Assembly (NCBI GenBank): GCA_965206445.1
Contig: CBDBJR010000001.1
Coordinates: 146,135-210,134 of the forward strand
Reading direction: 5' to 3'
DNA length: 64,000 nucleotides
From: Candidatus Poriferihabitaceae bacterium
Lineage (GTDB): Bacteria > Pseudomonadota > Gammaproteobacteria > Arenicellales > Poriferihabitantaceae
The notes under the pieces are model-generated. The model worked only from the letters and a program-made list of their open reading frames with translations. It was not told the DNA's origin and made no database searches. A program made the position numbers and the translations under genes. Shown here one piece after another: positions 1 through 23,406 of the stretch (the first letter of the stretch is position 1; every line of letters begins with the position of its first letter).

Positions 1-1095
1 CAATATGCGGCTTGCCAATGCCGCGACGATGAATGGCGAATAAATGTTTTCTGGAAAACGAAGGCGCATCAAATACCCAGCATACGCATAATTTCCTGAT
101 TCCTCGTCAAAGTGAATTGTCGATCCAACTAGCGATCGACTGCCATTCGATCGAATCATTAACACGTCATGCTTCTTGAGTGAATACTGTTTCTTCTCAG
201 CTTTTGTGAGGTTCGTGTATTTCAAGTCCTCCGTGGACAATTTCCCGGTCGATACATTGGGAATTCGCAACACAGCAGTATTTTTTGACGAATCGTAAGA
301 GCATTTTTGAGCAGTTCCATATTGGAGAGAATGGAACAGACATCCCAATCGGCACCACTCCCAGCCCTTCGGAATCTCGAAGGGAATTTCTTCGGGGGTG
401 ATTTTGGGGAGGGATTTTTCTTTGCGGAGTTTCTTTTCGGCGATGAGGCGGGCTTTTTCGGCCTGGATGCGGTGGAGGAGCTGGCTGGCGGGTTCCACGT
501 CCGGGTGGGCGGCGCGCCAATCCTCCGTCAGCTTGCCCTGAATCGCCTCCTGCAGGATGGCTTGCTTGAGCTTGCTGAGGAGGGATTGCTGGTGGGTGAT
601 TTCGTGTTCAAGATTCGAGTGCTCCAAAGCACACGAATCCATGCGCTTGATGATTCGATCCTGCACATCCGGCTCAGGGATGGGTAGTTCAACCGCAAAT
701 AATGCTTCAGGCTGGATGCGTTTTGTGGCGGCACCGCGCGCAATTGAGACCAGAGATTTGTAGAAATCCCCCTGCTTTAGAAAATACTCCAGCCACTCGG
801 GGCTAAGGCCATCAGCCACATCAAAGGCAGGGAGATCAGAACTGCTTTCAAATCCATCCAATTCCTGCGGCACTACTCCAAATGCGCCTTTGTGAAGATT
901 TTGCTTTCCATAAATGAACTGCCCTGTTCTCCGCTTGAAATACCGCGTCGCACCCTCAGTTTCTGCAATCAATGGACGCTTTTCGATCCCCTCTGCGTTC
1001 AGCCGAACCCTGATGCGCCGTTCAGCGGAAGGGTCAGATGATTCGATTTTGCTCTCGTTGAGATAATCCCCAATGCGCTTTTGCGGCCAATTCAT
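1..1095 (-). CDS. hsdS: Type I restriction-modification specificity subunit HsdS (3' end runs off the left window edge)
   Basis: Absent from the ORF track because it has no stop in the window. I checked every minus-strand codon from 1095 to 1 and found no stop. The translation MNWPQKRIGDYLNESK... contains the HsdS central conserved region LLSKLKQAILQEAIQGKLTEDWR...LLHRIQAEKARLIAEKK...IPFEIPKGWEWCRLG. Its ATG (1093-1095) overlaps the hsdM stop as ATGA. Confidence 0.8.
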   Translation of the reverse strand, partial: MNWPQKRIGDYLNESKIESSDPSAERRIRVRLNAEGIEKRPLIAETEGATRYFKRRTGQFIYGKQNLHKGAFGVVPQELDGFESSSDLPAFDVADGLSPEWLEYFLKQGDFYKSLVSIARGAATKRIQPEALFAVELPIPEPDVQDRIIKRMDSCALEHSNLEHEITHQQSLLSKLKQAILQEAIQGKLTEDWRAAHPDVEPASQLLHRIQAEKARLIAEKKLRKEKSLPKITPEEIPFEIPKGWEWCRLGCLFHSLQYGTAQKCSYDSSKNTAVLRIPNVSTGKLSTEDLKYTNLTKAEKKQYSLKKHDVLMIRSNGSRSLVGSTIHFDEESGNYAYAGYLMRLRFPENIYSPFIVAALASRIL

Positions 1096-2525
1096 TTTAT
1101 AAGGGTCCGTAGAGTTTCCAAATGTTTGCGGGAACGATTAAAGCCTTGTTTGATCTGGTTCATGATTTCTGCGGCAGAGAGTTCCTGTGTATCCTCCTCC
1201 CGATGCGGATTCTTCACATCCAGATCAAACCCCTTCTTCAAATCCCCGACCTTCATCTTCCACGCAACTTCGCTTTCCTCGCGCTTGTTCCACCATTCGA
1301 TCATGGGCGCGAACTCGTCGAACCGGATGGCTTTGGTTTTGGAGTAGCTCTTCTGCCTCCCGGGCAGGCAGTGCTCGTAATACCAGATTTCTTTCGTCGG
1401 TGTGCCTTTATGGAAGAAGAGCAGGTTCGTGGAGACCGTGGCGGGAAAGAAGGTGGACTGCGGGAGGCGGACGATGGTGTGCAGGTTGCAGTCGGTGAGG
1501 AGTTTTTCACGGATGCGCTCCTTGTAGCCGTCGCCGGTGATGCAGCCGTCGGGCAGGACGATGGCGCAGCGGCCACCGGGCTTGAGCAGTTGGATCATGA
1601 GAATGATGAACAGGTCGGCAGATTCCCGGCAGCGGAAGGAGGCGGGGAAGTTGGTTTCGACGCCTTCGGCGATTCCTGCACCGAAGGGCGGATTGGCGAG
1701 GATGACTTCCACCTGTTGCCTGGGGCCGATGGAGTTGTATTCGGTCTTGAGACTGTCGAGGTAATGCCAGTCGGGCACGTCGAGGCCGTGGAGAATTAGA
1801 TTGGTGAGGCCGAGCACATAGGGGACAGGTTTGTACTCCCAGCCGTGAATCGAATTTTGGAGGATGGCCTCGTCGTCGAGGGTGTGGACTTCGTTATCAC
1901 GGATGTGGTCGATGGCGGCAGTGAGAAAGCCACCGGTTCCGGCGGCGGGGTCGAGCACCTTTTCTCCGAGCCTGGGCGCGGTCATCTGCGTCATGAGCCG
2001 GGTGATGGCGCGGGGCGTGTAGTATTCGCCCTTGTTCCCGGCGTCACGAAGTTCGATGAGGATCGATTCGTAAATCGTGCCGAAGATGTGGCGATCTTCC
2101 GAATTGTTGAAGTCGAAGCCGTTGAGTTGGTTGATGACTTTGCGCATCGCGAAGCCCGACTTCATGTAATTGTTCACTCCATCGAAAACTTCCCGAACGA
2201 TACCCGCGCGCTGCGGGGCTTTCAGAGCCTGTAGATTTGTGAGATGGATAAAGAGACCGTCGACAGGGTGGTTGATGAACAAAAGGAGTTCATCTCCGGT
2301 GATGCCCTCGGGGTCGGTTGCCCAGTTGCGCCACTGGAATTTCTCAGGGATGACGGAGGTATAGCCCTCGCGGATGAGTTCGAGTTCCTGGTCTTTCTCG
2401 TCGAGGATTTTCAGGAAGAGCATCCAGCCGAGTTGCTCAAGGCGCTGGGCGTCGCCGGAGATTCCGGGATCTTCGTCTCGCATGATGTTGCGGACATTTT
2501 TAACGATGGCAGAGATGTTGGGCAT
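1092..2525 (-). CDS. hsdM: Type I R-M N6-adenine DNA methyltransferase subunit HsdM
   Basis: 477 aa. SAM-binding motif VLDPAAGTGGFL and catalytic motif ILANPPFG. N-terminal HsdM-type region (RLEQLGWMLFLKILDEKD). Sits in operon order hsdR-hsdM-hsdS. Confidence 0.9.
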   Translation of the reverse strand: MPNISAIVKNVRNIMRDEDPGISGDAQRLEQLGWMLFLKILDEKDQELELIREGYTSVIPEKFQWRNWATDPEGITGDELLLFINHPVDGLFIHLTNLQALKAPQRAGIVREVFDGVNNYMKSGFAMRKVINQLNGFDFNNSEDRHIFGTIYESILIELRDAGNKGEYYTPRAITRLMTQMTAPRLGEKVLDPAAGTGGFLTAAIDHIRDNEVHTLDDEAILQNSIHGWEYKPVPYVLGLTNLILHGLDVPDWHYLDSLKTEYNSIGPRQQVEVILANPPFGAGIAEGVETNFPASFRCRESADLFIILMIQLLKPGGRCAIVLPDGCITGDGYKERIREKLLTDCNLHTIVRLPQSTFFPATVSTNLLFFHKGTPTKEIWYYEHCLPGRQKSYSKTKAIRFDEFAPMIEWWNKREESEVAWKMKVGDLKKGFDLDVKNPHREEDTQELSAAEIMNQIKQGFNRSRKHLETLRTLIK

Positions 2526-2537
2526 GGGATTCTAAGG

Positions 2538-4931
2538 TTAGGCGGCTTCGTAAAGGTGGGTGGTGAGTTCTTTGATGGCCTGGTCGTAGGCGGGTTTGCC
2601 GCCGAAGGCGCGGACGATCTCGGGCGCGGTACCGAGGCGTTTGATCGGGTCAAGGGTGATGATGGCGGGGTTTTCGAGGTCAAGCAGGCCGTCGTCGGCA
2701 TATTTTTCCAGCAGGCTATCGAGGACGGCGCGGGCGAGGTCGCCATACCGGGTGAAGTAGTTGCGCTTGCGCACGTTCTCGGCGCGCTCCCGGCGGGTCA
2801 GCGGTTTCTGCTCGAAGGCGACGTGGCAAATGAGATCAAAGGGATCGAAGTCGGAGCCGACTTCATCTTGCAGGGCGGCGAAGATGACGCCGCGGTTCTC
2901 CAATTCTTCGACGATGGCGCGCTTCTTTTCGGCGTCCCGCCATGAGGTGAGGAAAGAACCCAGCGAGGCGTAGCTCGTCCGGACGTTTTTGCGGGTGTAG
3001 TCGCGCAGGCTCTCGGTGATAATCCTGCCGTCACCGCCTATGTATTGGACGCGCTCCTTGATGATGGTTACCTCGACGCCGTTGACGATCACCTTGCGGC
3101 GTTTTGGCTTTTTGTCAGTGTCTTCGTCATCAATGGGGATGCCGAGGGTCTCCGGATCGGGAAATTCGATATAGTCGCCGGTGAGGTCGTCGATGACGGG
3201 GGTGTCATCGGTTTCCTCGTCGGTGTCGGAGAGATCGTCGTCCTTGCCGACTTCCTTCACGCGGACGGGATCGCCGTCGAAATCCTTGTCGGCGAAGAGT
3301 GCGGTGACATTTCGGAAATCCATGATGGTGAAGTAGTGCTTCCTGAAGTCTTCATTGATGCGGGTGCCGCGACCGATGATCTGCTTGAACTCGGTCATGG
3401 AGACGATGTTTGCGTCCAGAACAATGAGCTTGCAGGTCTGGGCGTCGACACCGGTGGTCATGAGCTTTGAAGTGGTGGCGATAACCGGGTAGATCTCGGA
3501 TGGGCTGATGAAGGCGTCGAGATGGCGTTTGCCTTCTTCGTTGTCTCCCGTAATCTGCATCACGTATTTGCTGTTTGCGGAGACAAGGTCGGCGTTGGCG
3601 TTGGCTAGTTCCTTGCGCATATCTTCGGCGTGTTCGATATCGACACAGAAGACGATGGTCTTGGAGAAGCGGCCGCTGCCCTTGAGGAACTCGGTGATCT
3701 TTTGCGCGACGCGCTGACGGCGTTCTTCGATAACGATGCGTCTGTCGAAATCGGTGCGGTTGTAGATGCGGTCTTCGACATCCTTGCCGTCCTTGTCCTT
3801 GAAGCCTTTCGGCGGGCGCCAGCCCTCAGGATCGATACCCAGAGTGACATTGAGGACCTCGTAGGGGGCGAGGAAGCCGTCGGCGATGCCCTGCTTGAGG
3901 GAATAGGTATAAAGCGGGTCGCCGAAATACTCGGAGCTGGAGACTTTTCTGGTTTCCTTGGGCGTGGCGGTAAGGCCGATGTGGGTGGCTCCGTTGAAGT
4001 ATTCGAGGATTTCGCGCCACTTGCTGTCTTCGCTGGCGCTGCCCCGATGGCACTCATCGACGATGACGAGATCGAAGAAGCTGGGGCTGAACTGCTTGTA
4101 GGCGTCGTTGTCGCTGTTATTGTTGCCGGAAAGGCCCTGGTAGAGCGCGAGGTAGATGTTGTAGGCGGTGTTGATCTGCCTGTGCTTGATGACGGTCATC
4201 GCGTCCTTGAAGTGGCGGAAGTCGCCCCGGACGGTCTGGTCTATGAGCACGGTGCGGTCGGCCAGAAACAGGATGCGCTTTTTCAGGCCACTCCGCCAAA
4301 GGCGGTAGATGATCTGAAAGGCGGCGTAGGTCTTGCCCGTGCCCGTCGCCATGACGAGGAGGTGGCGGTTGTGGCCTTCGTCTTTGGCGATGGTTTCGAC
4401 TGTACGGTTGATGGCGATCTGCTGGTAATAGCGGGGGGAGCGACCTGATCCGTCAATGAAGTATTCTTGAACCACCACCGGTTCGGCAGCGTCTGTGATG
4501 CCGTTGTGCGCCTTGTATTTTTCCCAGAGGGTTTCCGGGCTCGGAAAAGCGCCCAGGGCGAGCTCGGTTTCGATGGTGCCTGAAGTGATTGTGCGATCGT
4601 GAAAATGGAAGCCGTCGCCATTGCTGCTGAAGACAAACAGAATATCCAGCGTCCTGGCGTAGCCGAGTGCCTGCTGCATGCCGGCGCCAACTGTGTGATT
4701 GTTGTCTTTCGCCTCAACGACCGCGATAGGGATGTTGGGCTTATAGTAGAGAATGTAGTCGGCGCGCTTCTGCGCTCCGCGTGTGTGGAGTTTCTTTCGA
4801 ACGTAGATTCTGCCGTCAGTGAACCCAACTTCCTCGCGAATCTGGGTGTCTATATTCCATCCTGCCGCGACGATGTTGGGCGTGATGAACTTGGTGCAGA
4901 TGTCGCGTTCGCTGAGATCCTTTTTGTTCAT
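2538..4931 (-). CDS. hsdR: Type I restriction enzyme R subunit HsdR
   Basis: 797 aa. N-terminal PD-(D/E)xK-like ADYILYY...IAVVEAKD. SF2 motifs VMATGTGKT (I), VIVDECHRG (II) and GLTATP (III). Long C-terminal helical region typical of EcoEI-type R subunits. Confidence 0.9.
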   Translation of the reverse strand: MNKKDLSERDICTKFITPNIVAAGWNIDTQIREEVGFTDGRIYVRKKLHTRGAQKRADYILYYKPNIPIAVVEAKDNNHTVGAGMQQALGYARTLDILFVFSSNGDGFHFHDRTITSGTIETELALGAFPSPETLWEKYKAHNGITDAAEPVVVQEYFIDGSGRSPRYYQQIAINRTVETIAKDEGHNRHLLVMATGTGKTYAAFQIIYRLWRSGLKKRILFLADRTVLIDQTVRGDFRHFKDAMTVIKHRQINTAYNIYLALYQGLSGNNNSDNDAYKQFSPSFFDLVIVDECHRGSASEDSKWREILEYFNGATHIGLTATPKETRKVSSSEYFGDPLYTYSLKQGIADGFLAPYEVLNVTLGIDPEGWRPPKGFKDKDGKDVEDRIYNRTDFDRRIVIEERRQRVAQKITEFLKGSGRFSKTIVFCVDIEHAEDMRKELANANADLVSANSKYVMQITGDNEEGKRHLDAFISPSEIYPVIATTSKLMTTGVDAQTCKLIVLDANIVSMTEFKQIIGRGTRINEDFRKHYFTIMDFRNVTALFADKDFDGDPVRVKEVGKDDDLSDTDEETDDTPVIDDLTGDYIEFPDPETLGIPIDDEDTDKKPKRRKVIVNGVEVTIIKERVQYIGGDGRIITESLRDYTRKNVRTSYASLGSFLTSWRDAEKKRAIVEELENRGVIFAALQDEVGSDFDPFDLICHVAFEQKPLTRRERAENVRKRNYFTRYGDLARAVLDSLLEKYADDGLLDLENPAIITLDPIKRLGTAPEIVRAFGGKPAYDQAIKELTTHLYEAA

Positions 4932-5386
4932 GCGGCTGTCCTGAGAACCGGTTTGTCGTCTTCTTTCCAGTCGATGAGGGTGTCGGCGATGGAATACTTG
5001 TGCAGGCAGCTTTGTTCGTTCTCACAGCCAACGGTCTTGAAGCGGCCCTTGCCGTAGGCGGTCTTGTCCACCGGGGTGCTGGTGAAGCCGAGAAAGGTCA
5101 TATTCGGCAGACCGGCCATCAAGAAGTTGCCGAGGTTGCCGCCGGTGGTGCAGTAGGCTTCATCGATAAGGATATAGATGCTTGAACGTAAATTGAGATT
5201 CGCTGGCATGTCGCGGAACTTGTGGGTCATCGTCACGATGATGCCTTGGTAGTCATCTTTCAGTAGCTGGTTGATCCGGGTGATGCTGCTGGCGCAGAAC
5301 GAAGTGTTATGGAGAAATGATGCAGAATAAAATGGTACCAACCATAACTTATTCATTTTACATTCCTCTCCTTGTCTTTCGACCAC
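4928..5386 (-). pseudogene. Remnant of a second, different-family type I HsdR (internal fragment only)
   Basis: Keeps degenerate HsdR landmarks in the right order: GIIVTMTHKF (TIQKF-like), IYILIDEAY (DEAH degraded) and LPNMTFLGFTSTPV (GFTGTP degraded). Motif I and the whole C-terminal half are missing. Its stop overlaps the intact hsdR ATG as ATGA. Confidence 0.55.
4960..4991. repeat. Left copy of a 32-bp direct repeat (30/32 identical to 10143-10174)
   Basis: cttctttccagtcgatgagggtgtcggcgatg here versus cttccttccactcgatgagggtgtcggcgatg at 10143-10174. On the minus strand it encodes IADTLIDWKE versus IADTLIEWKE. The flanks show no similarity. Confidence 0.85.
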
Positions 5387-5530
5387 AATCGACTTGAAGT
5401 GTACTGAGTTTCATTGAGATCAGATTCGTTGTTTTCTTTGGATAGAGAATTCTGAAGCTGCCAAAGGACAGAGAAAACACCGTCCGAGAATAGGGTTGGT
5501 TTCATGGAGCGTGCTGACTGGGAGACTGAT

Positions 5531-5794
5531 TCACACGTAGACGCGAAGACATGAAGTCTTGAGGGTTGTTGACGATACGATTGTAGTCTTCCCTAAAGGT
5601 TGTGTCTCCGAAGCTGATGAGCCTGCCGACCCAGTTACTTGCGCCGTTTCGGCATCGACCTTCAGAGCGCTGACCACCTTCCTCCCGTCAACACCATCGA
5701 ATAGATGGCTATCATAAACAAGGAAACGAGGGGCGATCCCACGATTCGCACAAAGCCGCATGACTATCATGTCGAAGCCGGGTTCATCGTTCAT
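5531..5794 (-). other. Small ORF overlapping the helicase stop, apparently frameshifted (unknown function)
   Basis: ATG at 5792-5794 overlaps the helicase stop (ATGAACGATGA). It reads MNDEPGFDMIVMRLCANRGIAPRFLVYDSHLFDGVDGRKVVSALKVDAETA, then becomes low-complexity. A second frame continues plausibly (NWVGRLISFGDTTFREDYNRIVNNPQDF...). I recognise no family. Confidence 0.2.
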
Positions 5795-8700
5795 CGCCGG
5801 CGATGATCTTCCACACTTGTCTGTAGTCGCCTCCGGACAGCTGAGCATTTTCTGGGCGGGCGCGGTTCCAGGTCTCAATATCTGCGTCAGCAAGAAATTG
5901 GCGAGCCTTCTGGATTCCCGCTCCGCCTTCGCCTGCTGGTGCATTCTGCTGATAGTGCTTGCCCATGCGCTCTGCGATGGACCGCGGAACACCGTTCATG
6001 CGCATGAGCACACCTTCTTCAGTTTTTACCCCGTGATAGATCATCGCGGGCAGGAGATCGATCGACCGCTTCTGTTCAGGTGAGAGTGTCTCGAAATTAA
6101 TCCCAGACAATCGGCTCAGCGCCGAAAGACCCCATGTGCCGTTGTTGACGAGATTTCGGTAGATGGCGCGGCACGCCTTGGTGATTGCATTGGTGACATC
6201 TCCATTGGCCTGGAAATACGTGGTCGCAATTTCCTGAATACTCCTTCCCTCCACCCATGCTTTGGTGATCTGCGCAAGCCGGCGATTGTCAGTGCCAGGT
6301 GTCGTGAGCTCACCCAAATTACGTGCAAGCTGGGGGATGCGGAGCATGATCCCATAGAAATCGGCCATGCCATCGGTGTTGCCAAAAAGTCTCTCACCGG
6401 AAAAATCCTCCACCGTAACATCGCGTTCCAAGGACTGGAGGCCATGCAGGGCATTGCCGACACCCTCGAACGAGAAGCCCGTCATGTCCGCCATGGCCAC
6501 CCGACCGGGATTCTCCGAGATTTTCCGGGCGTACTGCTTGGTTGCTTCGAGCAGCTTTTGTGCGCGTGCACGACCAGCCGGATCTTCTTGCAGGACTCGG
6601 TAACCGTAAGTGTTGCGCAAAGACAGCTCCGCGCTTGATAGCACTTGCTCCAGATTGCCGATCTCATGGACCAGATGGTTCACGTAGCAGCGGAAATCCT
6701 CCCACTGCTCGTTTTGAATTACGGCTGCGAGTTCATCGGGAGATTCCGCGGCATCTAACTCGGCCACGACCGTAACCAAGCGAGAGACCAACTCGCCCGT
6801 GGCTTTTTTCACATATTCAACGATGTCGGCTGGACGGTTGGCTTCGGCGATGCCGACGACGCCCACGCTGTCTTGGTTCATCCGCCCGGCACGTCCTGCG
6901 AGGTTCCAGAACTCTCTCGGGTGCATCTCGACGTTGTATGGATACAGGTTGGTTGCCAAGAACACCGAGGACACCGGGAAGTTGATGCCCTGCGCAATCG
7001 TGGTCGTGGCGCATAACACGCGAAGGTCGCCCTCCTCCGCAAGCCACTCGACAAGCGTTCTCACCTCATCGGAAAGGGCTGCGTGATGTACCGCCACGCC
7101 GCGTGCAAGCATGCCGATCAATTCGAACTCGGGACTGATTTCGGACGCCAAAAACTTCTGCACAAGTTTAATCCGATAGGATGGCCCATCACTCTCAGGC
7201 AGCTTCTTCGCCGCTTCACGCGCCATCGACCACACCGCTGAGATTTTTCCCCCCACGGCGATACTCGTGCCGCGCGCCGAGAAAACGGTCGCCATTGCGG
7301 CTGCCTGGAGAGCGAATCCCTGCTGCTCTCCATTAGCCTTGATCAACTTGGATTTCGCCACATCGAGCGGCTTGACTCCGCCCACCGGATGCTGCCCCGC
7401 CAGATGGATTGTTCCCGGCGTGGTAACCAGCGTTTGATACCGCAGCTTCCATCCGGCTCTCTGGCTGGTATCGGCTTCGGCTCGGAACATTCCCACGATG
7501 CGTTCGTTGGGCTTCCAAACGCTGGTGCCGATACTGATCGAGCGGCCGCCCGTTGCGTCGTTGGCGAGCCATCGCGCCAGCGCATCCGCCCGCTCCACGA
7601 ATGGCATCAAGAGGAGGAAATTCGCTCGCGTGCTCTCCTGCTTGACGGTGGCCAGCAGCAGTTCGATGCGCATTCCACGCTGTTCGCTTTCCATATTGTG
7701 GGCCTCATCCAACACAAGTAATGCGAGCGGACGTGGCACCTTCTTGTTACGGATCACCAACTGGAGTTTCTCCGGTGTCGCCACCAACACATCAAAGCTG
7801 CGAGCGTCATCTTGCCTCGAGGCGGAGAGCATTTCATCTTCAATGGCGTCAATTTCCACCGCACCAGTCAGTTGCTCCACGCGGATGCCGACAGGAGTGA
7901 AATCCCGGCGCAGGCGTCGGGTGATCTGCGCGCTGAGGGCGCGGGTCGGTACCACATAGGCCACCCAGCCACCATCTTCGGCGAACTGGTTCAGCGCCTG
8001 CAGAATTCGGAACTGGGCCAGCAACGTCTTGCCGCCCGAGGTTGGCAGGTCGACAACCACAGCGGTCGCCGCCTGATCGAGCAGTCCCTGCTCCTGCAAT
8101 GCGGCTCGTTGCGGTGGGAGCAGCTCAAACATCGCCTGCTTCTTTGTTGTGGACCCAACGAAGCGTGTGACCCGTGAATTGATCCCGTGGGCGACCCACC
8201 AGAGGGAACCGGCGACCATCTGCCGGGAAGTGGCATGCAGCCAGCGCATGAGCACCTCGAGTTGGGCATCACCTCCGGCTGCGGCGGCATCCGTTGCCGC
8301 TTCGAAATGCTTGTCGAGCTGGGCATTGATGCCCCCTGGTTCGCCTTGAAGGACGTATTTGGCGAGTAGCTCGGTGGCCTTGGCCCAATTGTAGAAGGTG
8401 ATCAGCCGTAACGCCATTGCCCGGTCCTGCATGTTGGAACCGCTATCGAGCGATGTTTGCTCGAACTGCCGCTGGTCTTCACGCAATCCGGCTATCGTCT
8501 CATGAATACGGTCGAGGTCGTCCCAGCCTTTCTTTCGGAAGAGTCTCACCCAGCAATCGAACAAGCGATACAGCAGGCGATAATGCCAAGGTTGATCTGC
8601 CACAGAAGGTTCCGCGATGGATTCCGGGTTCTCCGTAAACCAACGCCGGATATCGGACCAGCGGTCACCGCAATACGCTAACCCCGCCAGATGAAGAACG

Positions 8701-9050
8701 TGAAAAATGCGCTCTTCGACTGGTTCAGGGACAGAAAACAGCCGGCGTAACTCAAACGTCCGCCAGGCGCCTGCGACGCACTGCTTGCGCAGGCCGTCCT
8801 CGGCAAGCGAAAGATTCAGGAAGGCAGGCAGACCTTCAATCGCGGCCATCTCGTAGGCGAGAGCGAGACGGCGGAGAAGATCCTGGTCGCTCGCCCGCTC
8901 TTCATAGGACAGGCGCATTTGCCCCCCAACCGCCTTCGCGACAAGGCGCGCATTGGCGACCTCGAGCCCGTGATCCCGTTCTTCGACACCGATGGCGAGC
9001 ACGGCCCAGTGGTCGTCCACGGAATCGATGGTTTTCTTGTTCAGACTCAT
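5784..9050 (-). CDS. Large SF2 (Ski2/Hel308-like DEAH) helicase, HamB-like candidate defence helicase
   Basis: Track ORF 5784..9182 trimmed to MSLNKKTIDS... because that ATG (9048-9050) overlaps the upstream gene's stop as ATGA. Motifs: DLPTSGGKT (I), LVLDEAHNM (II), GVAVHHAALS...VLCATTTIAQGINFP (V) and LAGRAGR (VI). About 350 aa of N-terminal helical region and about 330 aa of C-terminal region are unassigned. Confidence 0.8.
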   Translation of the reverse strand: MSLNKKTIDSVDDHWAVLAIGVEERDHGLEVANARLVAKAVGGQMRLSYEERASDQDLLRRLALAYEMAAIEGLPAFLNLSLAEDGLRKQCVAGAWRTFELRRLFSVPEPVEERIFHVLHLAGLAYCGDRWSDIRRWFTENPESIAEPSVADQPWHYRLLYRLFDCWVRLFRKKGWDDLDRIHETIAGLREDQRQFEQTSLDSGSNMQDRAMALRLITFYNWAKATELLAKYVLQGEPGGINAQLDKHFEAATDAAAAGGDAQLEVLMRWLHATSRQMVAGSLWWVAHGINSRVTRFVGSTTKKQAMFELLPPQRAALQEQGLLDQAATAVVVDLPTSGGKTLLAQFRILQALNQFAEDGGWVAYVVPTRALSAQITRRLRRDFTPVGIRVEQLTGAVEIDAIEDEMLSASRQDDARSFDVLVATPEKLQLVIRNKKVPRPLALLVLDEAHNMESEQRGMRIELLLATVKQESTRANFLLLMPFVERADALARWLANDATGGRSISIGTSVWKPNERIVGMFRAEADTSQRAGWKLRYQTLVTTPGTIHLAGQHPVGGVKPLDVAKSKLIKANGEQQGFALQAAAMATVFSARGTSIAVGGKISAVWSMAREAAKKLPESDGPSYRIKLVQKFLASEISPEFELIGMLARGVAVHHAALSDEVRTLVEWLAEEGDLRVLCATTTIAQGINFPVSSVFLATNLYPYNVEMHPREFWNLAGRAGRMNQDSVGVVGIAEANRPADIVEYVKKATGELVSRLVTVVAELDAAESPDELAAVIQNEQWEDFRCYVNHLVHEIGNLEQVLSSAELSLRNTYGYRVLQEDPAGRARAQKLLEATKQYARKISENPGRVAMADMTGFSFEGVGNALHGLQSLERDVTVEDFSGERLFGNTDGMADFYGIMLRIPQLARNLGELTTPGTDNRRLAQITKAWVEGRSIQEIATTYFQANGDVTNAITKACRAIYRNLVNNGTWGLSALSRLSGINFETLSPEQKRSIDLLPAMIYHGVKTEEGVLMRMNGVPRSIAERMGKHYQQNAPAGEGGAGIQKARQFLADADIETWNRARPENAQLSGGDYRQVWKIIAGDER

Positions 9051-9838
9051 CGGGTACCTCCTTGCCGACGGACGGCCACGACCTGAGTGCCCAATGTGGC
9101 GATACTGCCTTGCGGGAGATAAATGCCCAGCAGCTCGATCACGGTGGCGCCAGGACAGTTGCGCCCCAGAGCCGCTACGCACGCCTTGAGGTCGTTCTTA
9201 TGCGGGGCCACATCGCGAACCAGAAGACCGAAAATTCGCACTTCGCAGGGATCGCGAAGATACACGCCCGCAGCAGATTTGTAGCGTTTCAGCCAAGTGC
9301 TCTGCTCGGCGCGGTGACCAAGATACTTGATCAGATCATCCCGAATGATCTTGCGGTCCCGAAGATCTTCCAACTGTTGTTTGAGTCCGTGGCGGCCATA
9401 GACGACACTTGGAGGATAAGTTCTCTCCGTAGATGTCTTTACTTCGCCAAACGCGAAGCGCTCTATCTGACCGTCGCGCTGAAAGCCAACCAAGTCCGCG
9501 CCCGGAAGACTAGAACCGCGCTTGCGCTTATCCCGGCCATCGGGCCATGGGAAATGGCAGTCCTTGTTTTCCGTGAGGTAACACTCTGCCAACGCTTCGC
9601 CCACGCGCCAATCTTCCAGATCGCGCGCATTGTTCAGAAGCGCATCAAGATTCTCCTGCGCAAAATTGGTATCCGCCACACTGCCAAGGAGGTTGGCGAT
9701 CTCGTCATTGCCCGCATCGTCAAACACCACCGCAGAAACGGGCCCCGATAATGCTGCATCAAGGTCGTCCGCAGACACGCCCAAACCCGTACCCGTAACC
9801 GGGTGTGTTCCCATCGTGTAGTGTTCCGTGACGCGCAT
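9047..9838 (-). CDS. PD-(D/E)xK-type nuclease, HamA-like candidate (effector of the nuclease-helicase pair)
   Basis: 263 aa. Core ...SSLPGADLVGFQRDGQIERFAFGEVKTS... gives D115 / E132-x-K134 by my count. Translationally coupled to the downstream helicase. Confidence 0.6.
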   Translation of the reverse strand: MRVTEHYTMGTHPVTGTGLGVSADDLDAALSGPVSAVVFDDAGNDEIANLLGSVADTNFAQENLDALLNNARDLEDWRVGEALAECYLTENKDCHFPWPDGRDKRKRGSSLPGADLVGFQRDGQIERFAFGEVKTSTERTYPPSVVYGRHGLKQQLEDLRDRKIIRDDLIKYLGHRAEQSTWLKRYKSAAGVYLRDPCEVRIFGLLVRDVAPHKNDLKACVAALGRNCPGATVIELLGIYLPQGSIATLGTQVVAVRRQGGTR

Positions 9839-9843
9839 GGTTT

Positions 9844-10869
9844 CTACTTTCCAGAAATTAGTCTGGAATGCAATGCTCGGTATAATCTATTCCCTGATAA
9901 GCAATTACGCGGCGTCATACCTTGCCCTCCTGTTTTATGGCGGCAAGGAGTTCGGGGCTGTCGGCAGTGAGGCAGAGAAGGCAGTTGCAAATGGGGTCGC
10001 TGGGTACGTTGAGGGTGACATAAGAAATAGGCATTTGCGTGCGAAGTTTCGGCGTCACTGGTGTGGATGTGGCGGCTGGGGGAGATATTGTAGTCATTTT
10101 TCACAAGTTCGGCATGATCAACGATGCGACTGAGTTTTTCCGCTTCCTTCCACTCGATGAGGGTGTCGGCGATGCGCTGGATGCCTTCGTCCAGGATGAA
10201 GTTCATTGGGGTCGCCTTTTTCGAAGACCTGGCTGGCGTTAACGAGGAAGACCTTGCCCTGTCTGGTCTTGGCTTGATCTTGTTGAGGAAGAGAACGATG
10301 CCCGGAGCGGTGGTGCTGTAGAAGAGGTTTTCGGACAGGTAGAGGACGCTCTCGATAAAGTCGTGGTCAACGAACCACTGACGGACGGTTTTTTCCTTGT
10401 TGGTGCCGGCATTACCCGATCCGCAGGAGGCGGCACCGGTATCGAGAACGACGGCGGCGCGACCGGTGGCGTTGAAGCTGGCGTGCATGTGCTGGACCCA
10501 GCCCCAGTCGGCGGAGGATTTACCGGGGAAGCCGGCCCCGGCGGGGAAACGATCGAGTTCGTCGTTGTCGGCTTCGGTTTGGATAATCCGCAATTTCTCG
10601 CGCTCTTCGCCGTCGTCCTGGCACAGCCAGTCAGGATTCTTCGCAATCCATTCTTGCAAACCAAAACACTCGCGCGCGCCGATTTCCCTAGAGGTTGCGG
10701 GCGGCATTTTTGTCATTTCCTTGTCGTTTCGGTTGACAGCGTACAGTCCCATCGGTGTTTTCTCCTTGGTCGTACTCTCCGCACAGGCGGACATATTGGA
10801 AAGCAAACAGAATATCACGGTTGGTTTGCCCATCAAAGCGCGCGCCGAGATAACCCACCTCACAAACAA
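9844..10869 (-). pseudogene. Decayed type I HsdM remnant (C-terminal half only, frameshifted, fused to unrelated N-terminal sequence)
   Basis: Contains HsdM C-terminal-half sequence ADWGWVQHM...GRAAVVLDTGAAS...FIESVLYLSENLFYSTTAPGIVLFLNK and ...IADTLIEWKE...VKNDYNISPSRHI. The SAM-binding and NPPF/Y motifs are absent. Over about 10205-10275 the expected KTRQGKVFLVNASQVFEKGDP appears only in another frame, so there are at least two frameshifts. Confidence 0.6.
10143..10174. repeat. Right copy of the 32-bp direct repeat (see 4960-4991)
   Basis: 30/32 identity, same orientation. Lies inside the hsdM remnant. Confidence 0.85.
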
Positions 10870-10884
10870 CGCACTTGTTTACGC

Positions 10885-11340
10885 TTATTCTACCGCCTGA
10901 ATCAACGGCTCAACCACATCCCTGATATGCTGCGGCGCAGCGATGCTGGTGTGCGTTTTGGCGCGGGTGAATACGCAGACAAATTCGCCGGTAAAGCACC
11001 GGTTTGCATCCTGAAAACCGGTCACCCGGAAGCGGATGGAGCGGTTGCCGATGCGTAGCGGCTGTACCTCGCATTGCAGCAGGTGGCGCGGGGTGACCGG
11101 TGCGCGGAAGTCGATGCTCATGTGCACAAACGGGGTGCCGATGCCGGTGTCTAGTTCCATCTGGTACCAGCCGTGGCCGAGTTGCCGCTGCCACCAGTTG
11201 TCGATCGCGTCCAATGCAAACCAGGCTATGCGGCCGGTGAACGCAATCGCCGCCGGGTCGCAGTCGGCCCAGCCGACGCGGATGGTATGGATGAACGGCG
11301 ATGGCGCCGTGGCGGGCGCCGGCTCAGTAGGTCTCGACAT
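10885..11340 (-). CDS. Hotdog-fold acyl-CoA thioesterase (4HBT/YbgC-like)
   Basis: Trimmed to MSRPTEPAP... (ATG at 11340). FIHTIRVGWADCDPAAIAFTGRI... matches the 4-hydroxybenzoyl-CoA thioesterase-type fold. Last gene of the box operon. Confidence 0.6.
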   Translation of the reverse strand: MSRPTEPAPATAPSPFIHTIRVGWADCDPAAIAFTGRIAWFALDAIDNWWQRQLGHGWYQMELDTGIGTPFVHMSIDFRAPVTPRHLLQCEVQPLRIGNRSIRFRVTGFQDANRCFTGEFVCVFTRAKTHTSIAAPQHIRDVVEPLIQAVE

Positions 11341-12517
11341 GGTAGCGGCCGCTCTCGCGCATCTCGGTGCGCAGGGTTTGCCAGGCGATGCCGTGGGCGC
11401 CGGCAATCTCGTCAAACGCCGCTTCAACCCCGCTCTCCATGGCCTTCAGGCCGCAAATATAGATGTGGGTGCGCGTATCCTGCAGCAGTGCGGCCACCGT
11501 GTCGCGCGCCTGGCGCAGGCCGTCCTGGACATGGTTTTTGCGCTCGCCGGGCACCCGGCTGAACGAGAAATGTTTGCTCAGGATGCGGTCGGGGATTTTT
11601 TCAAGCGGCCCGAAGTAGGGCAGCCCATCCGGTGTGCGGGCGCCAAAGAACAGCGTCATCGTCTGCGTCAGGTCGGGGTGGGTGCGCCGCCGGCGCATCG
11701 TGAAGCCGCGAAACGGCGCCGCGCCGGTGCCGGTGCATATCATCAGCAGTCGCGCCTGCGGGTCGTCCGGCAGCAGGAAGGTGGAACCAAACGGCCCGAC
11801 CAGTTTTACCGCCGCGCCGGGTTGCAAATCGCAGAGGTGGTTGGAGCACACGCCCTGCCGTTCGCGTTTGACGGTCAGCGAGATGTTGTTGTGGTTGGGG
11901 CGTTCGCCGTCACGCGGACTGGAAACCGAATACAGCCGCGGGGTGTGCGGCCTGCCGTGTGCATCGCTGCCCGGTGCAATGATGCCGACGCTTTGGCCTT
12001 CTAAAATCGGCAGCGGGGTGTTGCCCAGGTCGAGAATAATATGCCGCACGTCGAACTCCTGATGCGCCGGCGTCAGGCTGTAATTGCCCTGCACGATCGC
12101 GGCGGCCGGTTTGCCGGGGTGGTACAGGTTGACGCTGGATTTGGAGGCCGATAGCGGCGCCTTTTGTTTGCCGCCGGCGCCCTGGTGCGCTTCGGCCAAT
12201 AGTGCGGCGACGCTGTCGTCAAGCGCTTCGATGCTGGTGTTGACGTCGGCCGCACCGGCGAGCGCTTCCTGCGCCGGCAGCTCCAGCCAGCCAAACTGCT
12301 GTTCCAGCGTATAGGCCTCGCGCACCACCCGCCATTCGTCAATCGAGCCGGTGGGGCAGGGGCTGATGCAGGCCATGCAGAAATTGCATTTGTCGGCATC
12401 GACGACGACATTGTCGTCGTTGTGGCTGATCGCCTGAATCGGGCAGGTCGCCTCGCAGGTATAACAGCGGATGCAGATCTCCGGGTCGATCAGGTGTTGC
12501 TTGATGGGCTTGGGCAT
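11324..12517 (-). CDS. boxA: Benzoyl-CoA 2,3-epoxidase reductase component BoxA
   Basis: Two ferredoxin 4Fe-4S motifs (CIRCYTCEATCP, CNFCMACISPCP) are followed by an FNR-like domain (RLYSVSS, ICTGTGAAPFRGF). Adjacent to boxB/boxC. Confidence 0.8.
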   Translation of the reverse strand: MPKPIKQHLIDPEICIRCYTCEATCPIQAISHNDDNVVVDADKCNFCMACISPCPTGSIDEWRVVREAYTLEQQFGWLELPAQEALAGAADVNTSIEALDDSVAALLAEAHQGAGGKQKAPLSASKSSVNLYHPGKPAAAIVQGNYSLTPAHQEFDVRHIILDLGNTPLPILEGQSVGIIAPGSDAHGRPHTPRLYSVSSPRDGERPNHNNISLTVKRERQGVCSNHLCDLQPGAAVKLVGPFGSTFLLPDDPQARLLMICTGTGAAPFRGFTMRRRRTHPDLTQTMTLFFGARTPDGLPYFGPLEKIPDRILSKHFSFSRVPGERKNHVQDGLRQARDTVAALLQDTRTHIYICGLKAMESGVEAAFDEIAGAHGIAWQTLRTEMRESGRYHVETY

Positions 12518-12535
12518 CGCTTCTGCGGCGGCGCC

Positions 12536-13978
12536 TCAGCCCAGCCGTACGTACTCGAAATCACCGGGCTTGTTGTCAACCCCGACTTTCGGCGGCGCAA
12601 TCCAGCCGGCATATTTTCCGGGCTGCAACACCGGCTGCATCAGGGATTGGATGAAGTCGCCGTCCGCCGACGTCGGCAGCCAATCGCCCCGGTGCGCCGC
12701 CCACGTCTCGGCGGCCATTACCGTGCCCGCCGGGTCGATCGACACCGCGGCAAATTCGCCAATCTGCCGGTGAAAGCCTTCGTGCGGCAGCTTTAGCGCA
12801 AACGCGATGCCGTGCTTGTGGATGGTTTTATTCCAGCGCCCGATGCCGCCCGACGCATCGCGGATGTAGTCATCCCGCAAGCGCATGTTGATGGCCGACA
12901 GCGCCGGCACGTCGACCGACTGAATCGCCCCGTCGATCAGCCGACGGATCGGATAGGTGTCATTTCTGAGCTGATGATCGTCGTCGATCCGCAGCTCGGC
13001 GTAGCGCCCCTTGATGCCGGCGTTAAAGGCATTGGCCGCATTGGTCGAGACTTCCTGACCAAACAGGTCGAGCGAGAGCGAATAGTGCAGGTTGAGTTTT
13101 TTCTGCATGGTCGGCAAATCGATCACCCCCAGCGCGCGCACCCGATCGCGGTCAAACGGGTCGTCGATGCCGGCCCGGTTCATCGCCTCGACGGTGCGCT
13201 GAATGATGCGGCCAACGCCGGACTCGCCGACAAACATGTGATGCGCCTCTTCGGTCAGCATGAACCGGCAGGTGCGCGACAGCGGGTCAAAACCGGATTG
13301 CGCCAGGCTCTCCAGCTGCATTTTGCCGTCGCGGTCGGTGAAGTAGGTGAACATAAAAAACGACAGCCAGTCGGGGGTTTGCTGGTTGAACGCGCCCAGC
13401 ATACGCGGCGCCTCGGAAGAGCCGGAGGTGCGGCGCAGCAGCTCGGCCGCTTCTTCACGGCCATCGACGCCAAAGTATTTTTGCAGCAGGTAGACCATCG
13501 CCCACAGGTGGCGGCCCTCTTCGACGTTGACCTGAAACAGGCTGCGCATGTCGTACAGCGACGGCGCGGTCTTGCCGAGGAAGCGCTGCTGCTCGACCGA
13601 CGCCGGTTCGGTGTCGCCTTGAATCACAATCAGGCGGCGCAGCATGGCGCGATATTCGCCCGGCACCTGCTGCCAGACCGGCTCGCCGAGATGTTGGCCG
13701 CAGGGGATGGTCCGGCCCTCGACCTGCGGCGCCAGCAAAATACCCCAGCGATAGTCCGGCATCTTCACATAACCGAATTTTGCCCAGCCTTTCGGGTCAA
13801 CACTGACCGCCGTGCGCAAATAGACCGGGCTGTCGTGAAAGCCGTCCGGGCCTTTATCGCGCCACCACTCGAGGTAGCCGGGATGCCATTTTTTCAGCGC
13901 CTTGAGCACGCGCTGATCATCGGCCAGGCCGACGTTGTTGGGGATTTGCTCGTCGTAGCTAACGTTGATGCTGTCCAT
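12536..13978 (-). CDS. boxB: Benzoyl-CoA 2,3-epoxidase oxygenase component BoxB
   Basis: 480 aa, with diiron-type carboxylate/His motifs (e.g. LTEEAHHMFVGE). Conserved position between boxA and boxC. Confidence 0.75.
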   Translation of the reverse strand: MDSINVSYDEQIPNNVGLADDQRVLKALKKWHPGYLEWWRDKGPDGFHDSPVYLRTAVSVDPKGWAKFGYVKMPDYRWGILLAPQVEGRTIPCGQHLGEPVWQQVPGEYRAMLRRLIVIQGDTEPASVEQQRFLGKTAPSLYDMRSLFQVNVEEGRHLWAMVYLLQKYFGVDGREEAAELLRRTSGSSEAPRMLGAFNQQTPDWLSFFMFTYFTDRDGKMQLESLAQSGFDPLSRTCRFMLTEEAHHMFVGESGVGRIIQRTVEAMNRAGIDDPFDRDRVRALGVIDLPTMQKKLNLHYSLSLDLFGQEVSTNAANAFNAGIKGRYAELRIDDDHQLRNDTYPIRRLIDGAIQSVDVPALSAINMRLRDDYIRDASGGIGRWNKTIHKHGIAFALKLPHEGFHRQIGEFAAVSIDPAGTVMAAETWAAHRGDWLPTSADGDFIQSLMQPVLQPGKYAGWIAPPKVGVDNKPGDFEYVRLG

Positions 13979-14007
13979 ACGGGATTGCTCCGGTCAAGGT
14001 GTTCCGG

Positions 14008-15693
14008 TCACACGCGCCGGCGGTCATATGCAGCGCGCAGACCGCTGCCATAGCGCTGCAACGCGCCGTCCTTGCCGGCGGCGTTGGGGCGCTGAAAAAT
14101 CCAGTTCTGCCAGGCGGTCAGGCGGCCAAAGATGCGGGTTTCCATGGTTTCGGGGCCGGCAAAGCGCAGGTTGGCCTCCATCCCGGTGAGTGCATCGGGC
14201 GAAAAGTTGACGCGCGCTTCGAGAAACAGGCGGATTTCATCCTGCCAGTCGATATCGTCATAGGCATAGGTCACCAGGCCCAGCTCCATCGCCGCATCCG
14301 CCGGCAAGGCGTCGCCCGGTCTGGCCGCGAGGCGCTCGACCAGCCCGGGGTCGGCCAGAAACCGGGTTTGCAGCCGGGTCAGGTCATTCGACATGGGCAG
14401 CGCGCCAAAGTTGGCCGCGGTCAGCGTGATGGCCGCCGCCGGGCGGCTGTCCTGTTCAAACTCGCCGGCCATCATGCAGCTGCGGTCGACCGCAAACAGC
14501 AGCTCGGCCAGCAGGCCGACAAAACACGACCCGTGCTCGACCAGCGCCACCAGCGAGCGCGACGTCAGGTCGAGCCGTTTGAGCACGCGCTTCCAATACA
14601 AAATCACCTCGTGTGCCAGCCAGTGATCGGCGCCCTCGAACAATTGCCGCTCATGCGCCGCCAACAGTGCCGGGTCGCCGCTGGTGGTGAAAATCAGCGT
14701 GCCGATTTCGGTTTCATTCAACCGCAGATGCAAAATGGCGTCATCCAGCTCGCGTGCCAGGCGCAGCAGATACGCCTGATCGCCCCGGCGGTGAAACGCC
14801 TGCATCGACGTCGGCGCGGCTTCGTCCGGGCCGAACAGCGTGACGGTCGCGATGCGCCGGGCCCGGTCCGGCGTGATCTTTACCCGCGAATAGGCAACCG
14901 CGCCGTCATCGTCGAAGCGGCGCTCCAGCGGCGTCAGCCGAATTCCCGCCGCATCACTTGCCCCGTCACTCGCCGCGTCACTCGCCCCACTGCGGCGCTG
15001 CGAGCGCGCGCACACCGCCTCTACCTGCGCCGCCACCGCCGCGTCGAACTGCGAATTCGGCACCACCGCATCAACCAGCCGCCAGGCCTGCGCGCGCGCG
15101 CCCTTGACCCCTTCTTCGGTCGAGCAAAACACATCCGCCAGATCCCGGCGCACCTTGCGCTTGTCGGTCAGCCGCGTCAGCCCGCCGGTGCCGGGCAGCA
15201 CCGCCAGCAGCGGCACTTCCGGCAGCGCGACACTCGACGCCGCATCGTCGGCCAGAATAATGTAATCGCAGGCCAGCGCCAGCTCATAGCCGCCGCCGGC
15301 GCACGCGCCTTTGATCGCACAGATATAGGTTTGCCCGGACTCCCGGCCCGCGGCCTCGAACGTATTGCGGGTTTCGTTGGTGAATTTGCAGAAGTTGACC
15401 TTGTGCGCCGGCTCGGCGGCGGCCAGCATGCGGATATTCGCGCCCGCACAAAACACCCCCGGCTTGCCGGAAAGCAGCACCACCGCGCCGATTTCGGGGT
15501 GCTCGAAGCGCATGCGCTGAACAATATCGGCCAGCTCGATATCGACCCCGAGGTCGTAGGAGTTCAGCTTCAGTTGATAGCCCTCGAACAGCCCGCCGTG
15601 CTCGTCCACGTCCATATACAGGCAGGCCGCCGGCGCGGCGTACTCCACCCGCCAGTGGCGGTATCGACCCGGGTCGGTCTGGAAATCAATCAT
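14008..15693 (-). CDS. boxC: 2,3-epoxybenzoyl-CoA dihydrolase BoxC
   Basis: Trimmed to MIDFQTDPGRYRHW... (ATG at 15693). Large crotonase-fold protein (VFCAGANIRML, GACAGGGYELALACDY). Box-cluster context. Confidence 0.75.
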   Translation of the reverse strand: MIDFQTDPGRYRHWRVEYAAPAACLYMDVDEHGGLFEGYQLKLNSYDLGVDIELADIVQRMRFEHPEIGAVVLLSGKPGVFCAGANIRMLAAAEPAHKVNFCKFTNETRNTFEAAGRESGQTYICAIKGACAGGGYELALACDYIILADDAASSVALPEVPLLAVLPGTGGLTRLTDKRKVRRDLADVFCSTEEGVKGARAQAWRLVDAVVPNSQFDAAVAAQVEAVCARSQRRSGASDAASDGASDAAGIRLTPLERRFDDDGAVAYSRVKITPDRARRIATVTLFGPDEAAPTSMQAFHRRGDQAYLLRLARELDDAILHLRLNETEIGTLIFTTSGDPALLAAHERQLFEGADHWLAHEVILYWKRVLKRLDLTSRSLVALVEHGSCFVGLLAELLFAVDRSCMMAGEFEQDSRPAAAITLTAANFGALPMSNDLTRLQTRFLADPGLVERLAARPGDALPADAAMELGLVTYAYDDIDWQDEIRLFLEARVNFSPDALTGMEANLRFAGPETMETRIFGRLTAWQNWIFQRPNAAGKDGALQRYGSGLRAAYDRRRV

Positions 15694-16294: not shown

Positions 16295-16304
16295 GGTCGG
16301 CCCC

Positions 16305-18682: not shown

Positions 18683-18765
18683 GCTGTCCTCAACGCGGCA
18701 TTATACGGTATGATATTTCGCTTTGATTCGCGGGCGGTGTATCGTCCGCTCTGCTGCACGGCAAT

Positions 18766-18849
18766 ACGCTTGCAGGACGCTTGCAGGCAAACTGGCGGGC
18801 GGTCGGCAACGGCGGTTGAAATTATGCCATAGTATGCATACGCGCTGCA
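18766..18849. promoter_or_regulatory. Divergent promoter region with TGCA-containing repeats (possible BoxR/BzdR-type operator)
   Basis: Tandem 11-bp acgcttgcagg x2 (18766-18787) and TGCATACGCGCTGCA (18835-18849). Lies between bclA and the ABC importer. Confidence 0.3.
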
Positions 18850-18907
18850 CTCGAACGCCACACACATCTCGCCCTGCGGGGCCAACTATCGAACCGGAGA
18901 AAACAAA

Positions 18908-20065: not shown

Positions 20066-20133
20066 CGCCGGCCCCCGCCGGCCGCTCGAGCGGCATCATC
20101 GGGCGGCGACGGGGTTGGGTTCGGGCGCTGAAC

Positions 20134-21003: not shown

Positions 21004-21007
21004 GGTC

Positions 21008-22718: not shown

Positions 22719-23406
<688 letters not shown>

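Follow-up and report, generated by a model that had tools for sequence, protein, structure and literature searches.

A pair of overlapping genes is found on the minus strand of a 64,000-nucleotide stretch of contig CBDBJR010000001.1 (positions 146,135 to 210,134, assembly GCA_965206445.1, Candidatus Poriferihabitaceae bacterium), referred to here as the window. Gene A encodes a small nuclease-like protein and gene B a large helicase. The overall explanation that we favour, with a probability of about 0.7, is that the two genes make up an intact anti-phage module of the Hachiman type, belonging to the lineage catalogued as PDC-M23. The components of this explanation differ in strength: homology of A and B to HamA and HamB is very probable, an anti-phage function can be proposed from that homology with good but lesser confidence, and it is only somewhat favoured that the pair would follow the same trigger logic as HamAB of Escherichia coli. 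An earlier reading of the DNA, made from the sequence only, had left two possibilities, a divergent Hachiman and a nuclease-helicase system not described before. The fold and profile evidence supports the first of these. The locus is not a new kind of system, and represents a deep-branching Hachiman variant that has been overlooked by Pfam and NCBI models. What is new here is the structural and profile link from PDC-M23 to HamA and HamB, the predictions of catalytic residues and interface, and the picture of cassette transfer.

Both genes are full-length and intact in the window, and they are translationally coupled. The four-nucleotide ATGA overlap at 9047-9050, which the sequence-only reading had described, agrees with the list of open reading frames (ORFs) and their translations, and the same overlap is present in the annotated gene calls of related metagenome loci (L008-L016). 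Translation of B is taken to begin with MSLNKK at position 9050, an ATG preceded at 7-8 nt by GGAGG. A longer, GTG-started ORF at 5784-9182(-) encloses gene B, and its 1132-aa product was ruled out as the true gene B, because the homologs are 1080-1096 aa long. The GTG start is also disfavoured by the Shine-Dalgarno sequence of the ATG at 9050 and by the database entry, which is the 1088-aa product; the earlier trimming to MSLNKK is therefore retained. The exact products of both genes are present in a public protein collection (P0001, 263 aa, and P0361, 1088 aa) and come from one contig, which supports the chosen starts.

The family of the pair is identified by PADLOC profiles. Protein A matches PDC-M23A (PDLC04529) at 3.5e-99, with residues 3-256 aligned to profile positions 6-260 of 265, and protein B matches PDC-M23B (PDLC04531) with E = 0 and 1411.6 bits, residues 13-1085 covering positions 4-1059 of 1060. 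Running the PADLOC profiles had been suggested as a check on both products; the strong full-length matches are to PDC-M23A and PDC-M23B, and no such matches were obtained with the HamA and HamB profiles. On these matches the locus is assigned to the PDC-M23 family, and nothing sets it apart from the rest of that family. PDC-M23 belongs to a set of 145 "phage defence candidates" that were identified through "guilt-by-embedding", the host systems being BREX, DISARM and type I restriction-modification (R-M) (Payne et al. 2024, bioRxiv 10.1101/2024.01.29.577857). Supplement file 8 of that study lists it as cassette CAS_00096, with two families, a count of 161 and the remark "Assign as candidate PDC-M23". 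The study gives no function, fold or Hachiman link for PDC-M23, and Hachiman is not mentioned in it (Payne et al. 2024). The full-length matches, together with this entry, mean that the family has already been catalogued. The name "PDC-M23" occurs in none of the papers of the library that was searched. A 2026 BREX paper that names Ski2-like helicases and Hachiman was set aside, since its subject is BrxHI and it has no bearing on this pair.

The link between protein A and HamA comes from predicted structure. The AlphaFold2 model of A, built with 47 homologs, has a predicted local distance difference test (pLDDT) score of 85 and a predicted template modelling score (pTM) of 0.84. When this model was compared with the whole PDB by Foldseek, the sole significant matches were HamA chains (8vxy_A, E 1.2e-6, and 8vx9_A, E 4.6e-6), aligned over the full length with a probability of 1.00, a template modelling (TM) score of 0.53-0.57 and 15-16 % identity. 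A third Hachiman entry matched at 5e-3, while generic restriction nucleases (MspJI, FokI and Mus81) appeared only at E > 0.09. In the viral structure library BFVD there was one significant match (5.2e-5), to a protein described as "Anti-bacteriophage protein A/HamA C-terminal domain".

Sequence profiles point in the same direction, albeit more faintly for the window protein itself. No HamA profile in PADLOC-DB matched A below E = 0.01; the HamA1 profile PDLC00159 gave E = 0.021 over the catalytic core, and no relative of A was found in the PDB by sequence. In the reciprocal comparison, a canonical 259-aa HamA matched the PDC-M23A profile at 0.0056 with colinear positions. The A family is large, with 2,239 matches in a 90 %-clustered collection and 572 clusters at 50 % identity (E <= 1e-3); its named members are all called "hypothetical protein" and none carries a Pfam domain. 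A shallow profile of 47 A sequences aligned by hhalign to 18 canonical HamAs gave a weak 24 %, and it was only after the profile had been rebuilt from 56 diverse representatives at 50 % identity that this rose to 88 % (E 3.2e-6). In that alignment GEAxAE, PGADLVGF and FGEVKTS of the A family are in register with GDLGEIYATE, RGDDVIGM and KTEAKSR of HamA. Among the same 56 representatives, 11 match HamA1 PDLC00159 (best 2.5e-6), nine match PDLC00161, and only seven match Pfam PF08878 "HamA" (best 2.4e-5). The more divergent members thus bridge to the canonical family, and PDC-M23A is, on these profiles and the predicted fold, an outlying branch of the HamA/DUF1837 superfamily. The sequence-only reading had left DUF1837 membership to be checked with Pfam and HamA profiles: these do not establish it for A, while the HamA fold and the aligned D-E-x-K site do argue for it.

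The nuclease motifs that had been read from the sequence of A were located as described, LPGADLVGF at residue 111 and RFAFGEVKTS at residue 127, which puts the presumed active site at D115, E132 and K134. Residues E132 and K134 align with E138 and K140 of HamA, the site that is mutated in 8vxy. All 56 representatives have K134 and E81, and at least 90 % of them have D115 and E132. From this conservation A should be able to catalyse cleavage, in contrast to the inactive DUF1837 domain of AbpA, and it is predicted to be an active nuclease with a D115/E132-x-K134 site. One invariant segment of A, FPWPDGRDxRKxxSSLPGAD at residues 96-115, was modelled with the least confidence in the monomer. The loop W98-D115 aligns with loop 102-117 of HamA, which contacts HamB, and is probably the interface with the partner protein. 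Two relatives, P0381 (684 aa) and P0510 (452 aa), carry the M23A nuclease domain at their C-termini (426-679 and 203-442, respectively), and their N-terminal fusions recall the Cap4-HamA fusion of AbpA.

Protein B has a helicase core that resembles several known helicases by sequence. All of the superfamily 2 motifs that had been noted were recovered: DLPTSGGKT at residue 334, LVLDEAHNM at 445, VAVHHAALS at 652, CATTTIAQGINFP at 680 and AGRAGR at 718. The GGKT of Walker A, DEAH and the AGRAGR of motif VI are invariant in 38 B homologs. Pfam recognises the generic helicase core only (DEAD 329-472, ResIII, and Helicase_C 651-725), and a sequence search of the PDB places the core as Ski2-like, with Slh1, ASCC3, Brr2, HamB and Hel308 scoring alike. 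The homologs of B are 63-94 % identical to it over the full length and spread over many bacterial phyla and archaea (Thermoplasmata, Methanogaster), and they are named only "DEAD/DEAH box helicase", "Hel308" or, in some databases, "replicative superfamily II helicase". The HamB1 and HamB2 profiles of PADLOC match B at 1e-55 to 1e-44, mostly in the core; HamB1 (PDLC00194) covers residues 227-1022, and the HamB profiles reach 185 bits against 1411 for PDC-M23B. None of the NCBIfam models returned a HamB match for B, and its Hel308-type scores lie far under the cutoff (138 bits versus 887-1216).

The structural comparison separates these helicases. The top three Foldseek matches of the B model in the PDB are all HamB chains, with E values from 9e-22 (8vxa_A) to 1e-19, TM scores of 0.63/0.60, 1200-1245 aligned columns and 15-16 % identity. 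Hel308, Hjm, the Pol-theta helicase and Brr2 match the core only, at E >= 4e-14 and TMq 0.3-0.4 (for Hel308, 4e-14 and 0.37-0.39). Because B matches HamB over its full length and Hel308 in the core only, the regions that flank the core are of the HamB type. The sequence-only reading had found no motif in about 350 aa at the N-terminus and about 330 aa at the C-terminus of B; this holds for Pfam, while the predicted structure of the protein resembles HamB. In HamB, the N-terminal alpha-helical (NAH) domain is unique to that protein and holds HamA (Tuck et al., PMC12278908), and in the model the N-terminal helical region of B, about 300 aa long, corresponds to this domain.

A and B move as one cassette and occur in both defence and mobile-element settings. 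Their arrangement does not change over some 12 independent loci, whereas the genes around them do. In a survey of these neighbourhoods, which had been proposed as a check on defence context, eight of the loci had R-M or other defence genes only a few genes away from the pair. The identities of A and B to the window proteins co-vary, from 89/94 down to 47/55 %, and the ratios of non-synonymous to synonymous substitution (dN/dS) of 0.06-0.32 indicate that the pair is under purifying selection. The scan of genome contigs was made with a single sequence and not with an alignment, and returned seven loci. A search of 72,556 plasmids and 50,697 phage genomes, by near-identity DNA comparison and tblastn, found no member of PDC-M23; A had no match, and the best match of B was 29 % identical. 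Thus, a plasmid or phage origin is not supported.

The closest relative illustrates how the pair moves. The locus designated L001, in a metagenome-assembled genome of Thermodesulfobacteriota, is 94.8 % identical to the window over 4,302 bp (window 5653-9954). The shared block consists of A, B, 116 bp upstream and 131 bp downstream, and the flanks are unrelated. The GC content of the block is about 58 %, in a background of 64 % in the window and 50 % in L001. A highly similar block with unrelated flanks, and with a GC content unlike either background, shows that a bare cassette of about 4.3 kb, the pair without R-M genes, was recently exchanged. Terminal repeats were sought at the cassette ends and not found, and a transposon-like unit was rejected on that ground.

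If the likeness to E. coli HamAB extends to its mechanism (PMC12278908), A and B would form a 1:1 complex, in which the N-terminal helical domain of B would hold A, probably via the loop W98-D115. The complex would survey DNA, with B restraining A for as long as intact DNA is scanned. Upon infection, B could load onto damaged or free-ended DNA, and, by translocating 3'-5' at the expense of ATP, would release or activate A. Activated A would then degrade cellular and phage DNA indiscriminately, leading to abortive infection.

Several observations weigh against the Hachiman reading. Firstly, A has no match in Pfam even at E <= 10, DUF1837/HamA (PF08878) included, and none among the NCBIfam models, which also include HamA. 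Secondly, both proteins have low identity (15-16 %) to the solved HamA and HamB. Thirdly, the AlphaFold2 model of B is only moderately good (pLDDT 72.8, with parts of RecA1 at low confidence), and beyond residue 735 it contains no beta-strand, in the region that forms an OB-like barrel in E. coli HamB. The model suggests that this barrel is missing from the C-terminus of B, and if so, parts of the sensing mechanism may differ as well. The A-B complex and its interface are proposed by analogy with HamAB, with indirect support for the complex from the co-varying identities of A and B and from their translational coupling. PDC-M23 stands in the catalogue as a candidate only (Payne et al. 2024). 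Four of the approximately 12 loci (L005, L006, L015 and L016) are without nearby defence genes. Finally, the intergenic leader of about 75 bp upstream of A presumably holds the promoter, and a scan for sigma-70 consensus promoters and terminators, with counts near the shuffled expectation, placed nothing convincing in this leader.

The frequent association with R-M genes permits two other readings. In one, the pair would be an accessory module of type I/III R-M rather than an autonomous system, acting as a back-up upon restriction inhibition or as a processor of restriction-generated DNA ends, and the window copy, its host R-M having decayed, would be a stranded remnant. Such a role would fit the embedding of the pair between hsdS and hsdR (L008), an ABC-ATPase gene and hsdR (L003), and mod-Mrr and res (L004), as well as its position abutting hsdM in L001 and between hsdM and hsdR remnants in the window; moreover, the family was discovered via embedding in R-M, BREX or DISARM (Payne et al. 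2024). However, in L005, L006, L015 and L016 the pair, intact and highly conserved, is found on its own amid housekeeping or conjugation genes, what was exchanged with L001 is just the pair without any R-M genes, and the pair is still under purifying selection here though the flanking R-M genes have degraded. Canonical Hachiman is also autonomous (PMC12278908). An accessory role is thus unlikely. It is tempting to speculate, in the other reading, that PDC-M23 is a separate Hachiman lineage functionally coupled to R-M, a second-line amplifier of restriction whose helicase would load on the ends or nicks made by type I/III restriction in unmodified phage DNA and so unleash the nuclease. If true, this would explain the frequent insertion of the pair between methylase or specificity genes and the restriction gene, and also the C-terminal, DNA-end-sensing region of B that is unlike that of E. 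coli HamB. We regard this coupling as doubtful, too.

A function for the mobile elements themselves, for example in maintenance of an island or integrative and conjugative element, exclusion of competitors, or processing or replication of element DNA, has a rather small chance of being correct. Integrases or conjugation genes do lie within 10 kb of the pair in L002, L012, L013 and L015, and the cassette was very recently transferred horizontally. Nevertheless, the plasmid and phage genomes searched hold no member, the cassette has neither terminal repeats nor its own recombinase, the neighbours are mostly defence genes and not genes for replication or transfer, and the proteins are homologous to a proven defence complex. 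Least probable is a housekeeping role in DNA repair, with B as a Hel308-like helicase and A as its partner nuclease in the processing of replication forks or double-strand breaks: the core of B does score about equally against Hel308, Brr2, Slh1 and HamB, and some databases use a Hel308 or replicative-helicase label, but all NCBIfam Hel308 scores are far under the cutoff, the full-length fold is that of HamB and not Hel308, the homologs are scattered patchily over unrelated phyla and archaea at 63-94 % identity, and the neighbourhoods vary, here being a low-GC island beside decayed R-M genes.

The features of the pair, its surroundings and the related loci are collected in Table 1.

Table 1. 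Positions of the gene pair, its predicted domains and residues and its surroundings in the window, and gene order at related loci (domain limits of B are approximate and taken from the AlphaFold2 model).
Feature	Position	Strand	Description
Gene A	9047-9838	-	263 aa, ATG start; HamA-like PD-(D/E)xK nuclease, PADLOC PDC-M23A
Gene B	5784-9050	-	1088 aa; HamB-like Ski2/Hel308-type superfamily 2 helicase, PADLOC PDC-M23B
A stop/B start overlap	9047-9050	-	ATGA; GGAGG Shine-Dalgarno at about 9057-9061, inside the end of A
A, predicted catalytic residues	D115 9494-9496; E132 9443-9445; K134 9437-9439	-	plus helix-1 acidic residues E81 and E85
B, N-terminal helical domain	8151-9050	-	aa 1-300, all-helical, high confidence
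B, RecA1	7521-8150	-	aa 301-510
B, beta-rich insertion	7371-7508	-	aa 515-560
B, RecA2	6831-7328	-	aa 575-740
B, C-terminal region	5787-6830	-	aa 741-1088, all-helical
B, motifs	K341 8028-8030; DEAH 7698-7709; R720/R723 6882-6893	-	Walker-A lysine; DEAH 448-451; motif VI arginines
Upstream cassette leader	9839-9954	-	last ~13 codons of a lost upstream ORF and ~75 bp intergenic
Downstream cassette tail	5653-5783	-	to the end of nucleotide homology with L001; holds DUF2326-like gene remnant
hsdM remnant	~10048-10566	-	frameshifted C-terminal N6_Mtase part; context, outside the system
hsdR fragment	4928-5386	-	152 aa, partial SWI2_SNF2 ATPase; context only
Apparently intact type I R-M, further left	hsdR 2538-4931; hsdM 1092-2525; hsdS-like frame ~1095 to left edge	-
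L008-L011			hsdM, DUF1016, hsdS, A, B, small ORF, AbiEi, hsdR
L003			ABC-ATPase, A, B, two ORFs, hsdR
L001			hsdS, AAA_13, hsdM, RhuM′, A, B, housekeeping genes
L004			Mod methylase, Mrr, A, B, Res (type III R-M)
L012			pair between two HNH/ScoMcrA-like genes; integrases
L013/L014			integrase, PLD-SNF2, Eco57I-type methylase, A, B, SMC-like ATPase, Schlafen/AlbA_2, integrase
L002			integrase, A, B, HSDR_N protein
L015			pair beside relaxase and type IV coupling protein (T4CP) genes
L005, L006, L016			pair alone among housekeeping or RHS genes
L017 (pT173a)	3881-8640		286-aa hypothetical protein, PDC-M23B-like helicase, HamC2/DUF3223 (7e-85); beside VapBC and integrase

The pair lies in a block that differs in composition from the adjoining DNA, as the sequence-only reading had claimed: GC content is 0.54-0.60 over positions 1-11000 and 0.62-0.67 over 11000-23000, where genes of benzoyl-CoA-type catabolism are encoded. 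The pair had also been described as sitting between type I R-M genes. It is indeed flanked by them, with the qualification that its immediate neighbours are only remnants. The hsdM remnant covers positions 144-309 of 311 in the Pfam N6_Mtase profile and scores 52 bits against a cutoff of 243 for TIGR00497, and the hsdR fragment covers positions 78-182 of 221 in SWI2_SNF2 and scores 54 bits against 285 for TIGR00348. The DUF2326-like remnant at about 5639-5776 is recognised by Pfam DUF2326 (1.8e-9) on residues 73-118 of a spurious ORF at 5531-5992. The intact hsdR further to the left has an EcoEI-type C-terminus, and its start overlaps the stop of the upstream hsdR fragment as ATGA (4928-4931). 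None of the flanking hsdM, hsdR and DUF2326 remnants is a close relative of the R-M genes in L001, L003, L008 or L013, so that the decayed operon of the window is not simply the arrangement seen in L008.

Two oddities of these remnants look like scars of recombination among R-M genes. The first ~100 residues of the ORF at 9844-10869(-), which runs over the hsdM remnant, are unrelated to HsdM, and residues 42-101 have a weak match to PADLOC PDC-S11 (7.5e-7). The hsdR fragment ends in ...IADTLIDWKEDDKP, which resembles ...IADTLIEWKEAEKL of the hsdM remnant.

Elsewhere in the window, a second defence islet with a GC content of 42-49 % is located at 23484-26254, between an ABC-transporter ATPase gene and a glutathione synthetase gene. 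It encodes a GmrSD-type (DUF262/DUF1524) type IV restriction endonuclease at 23484-25391(+) and a protein with a NERD nuclease domain at 25595-26254(+). A gene for a 320-aa protein with a C-terminal HNH endonuclease domain is found at 40661-41623(-), in a patch of about 49 % GC between FemAB-like and M48 peptidase genes.

Among the related loci, the region 2828-17423 of L013 is bounded by integrases and has the pair flanked on one side by genes for a PLD-SNF2 helicase and a 1291-aa Eco57I-type methylase and on the other by genes for an SMC/AAA_15 ATPase and a Schlafen/AlbA_2-HATPase protein; it is a dense multi-system defence island. The nearest plasmid helicase is more distant, being found on pT173a of Ensifer canadensis with 29 % identity to B and a PDC-M23B profile match of 7e-179. 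The occurrence of this helicase beside HamC/DUF3223 is a further tie to the Hachiman radiation. The 286-aa protein encoded next to it has no PADLOC match and no detectable similarity to M23A or HamA, and may be another unrecognised HamA-like effector or a replacement for it.

The Hachiman assignment ties PDC-M23, an orphan candidate, to a system that is understood mechanistically, and it yields predictions of catalytic residues, a likely interface loop and activation by DNA damage. The nuclease family, with ~570 clusters at 50 % identity, is spread over bacterial phyla and into archaea. The HamA/DUF1837 superfamily thereby reaches beyond the annotation models of Pfam and NCBI, so the prevalence of Hachiman is likely underestimated. 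The locus is also a clean example of a bare 4.3-kb defence cassette that moves between very different genomes and stays intact while the surrounding R-M genes decay.

Several known systems can be compared with the pair. Archaeal Hel308/Hjm shares the Ski2-like helicase core and motifs with B. It differs in having neither the N-terminal helical domain nor a partner nuclease, and in its structural and profile scores (TMq 0.37-0.39 versus 0.63 for HamB, and NCBIfam scores far under the cutoff). Type II Hachiman consists of HamA2, HamB2 and HamC/DUF3223, and its HamB2 profiles match B at 1e-43. In contrast, no DUF3223/HamC gene lies beside the pair in the window or in the examined related loci, and one is found only in the distant Ensifer relative; downstream of B in the window are the DUF2326-like remnant and the hsdR fragment instead. 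AbpAB (YfjL/YfjK of E. coli K-12) is regarded as a Hachiman variant and is activated by DNA damage (PMC12278908, PMC11914072, PMC10732053). Similar to the pair described here, it combines a Ski2-like helicase with a HamA-domain protein. In AbpA, a Cap4 nuclease at the N-terminus is joined to a DUF1837 domain that is catalytically inactive (PMC11914072), whereas A consists of one domain of 263 aa, in which the D/E/K site is conserved and no Cap4 domain was detected.

The closest structural counterpart is HamAB itself, known from structures of Hachiman of E. coli ECOR31 (PDB 8vx9, 8vxa and 8vxy; Tuck et al., Cell 2024, PMC12278908). The two differ in the length of the helicase (1088 aa for B, 1174 aa for HamB) and are only 15-16 % identical, and in the moderate-quality model B has an all-helical C-terminus without the OB-like barrel and a beta-rich insertion at 515-560. 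A is also invisible to the PF08878 and NCBIfam HamA models, and PADLOC catalogues PDC-M23 apart from Hachiman. Besides the full-length profile matches, the window pair has gene order and the frequent embedding in R-M in common with PDC-M23 as catalogued. With Hachiman it shares, here and in the related loci, the layout of two adjacent, co-oriented genes with the small nuclease upstream of the large helicase. In addition, the model of A has the HamA fold with an aligned D...E-x-K site (E132/K134 versus E138/K140), and that of B has the same succession of an N-terminal helical domain of about 300 aa, RecA1, RecA2 and a helical C-terminal region, with RecA1 beginning at about residue 300 in both B and HamB.

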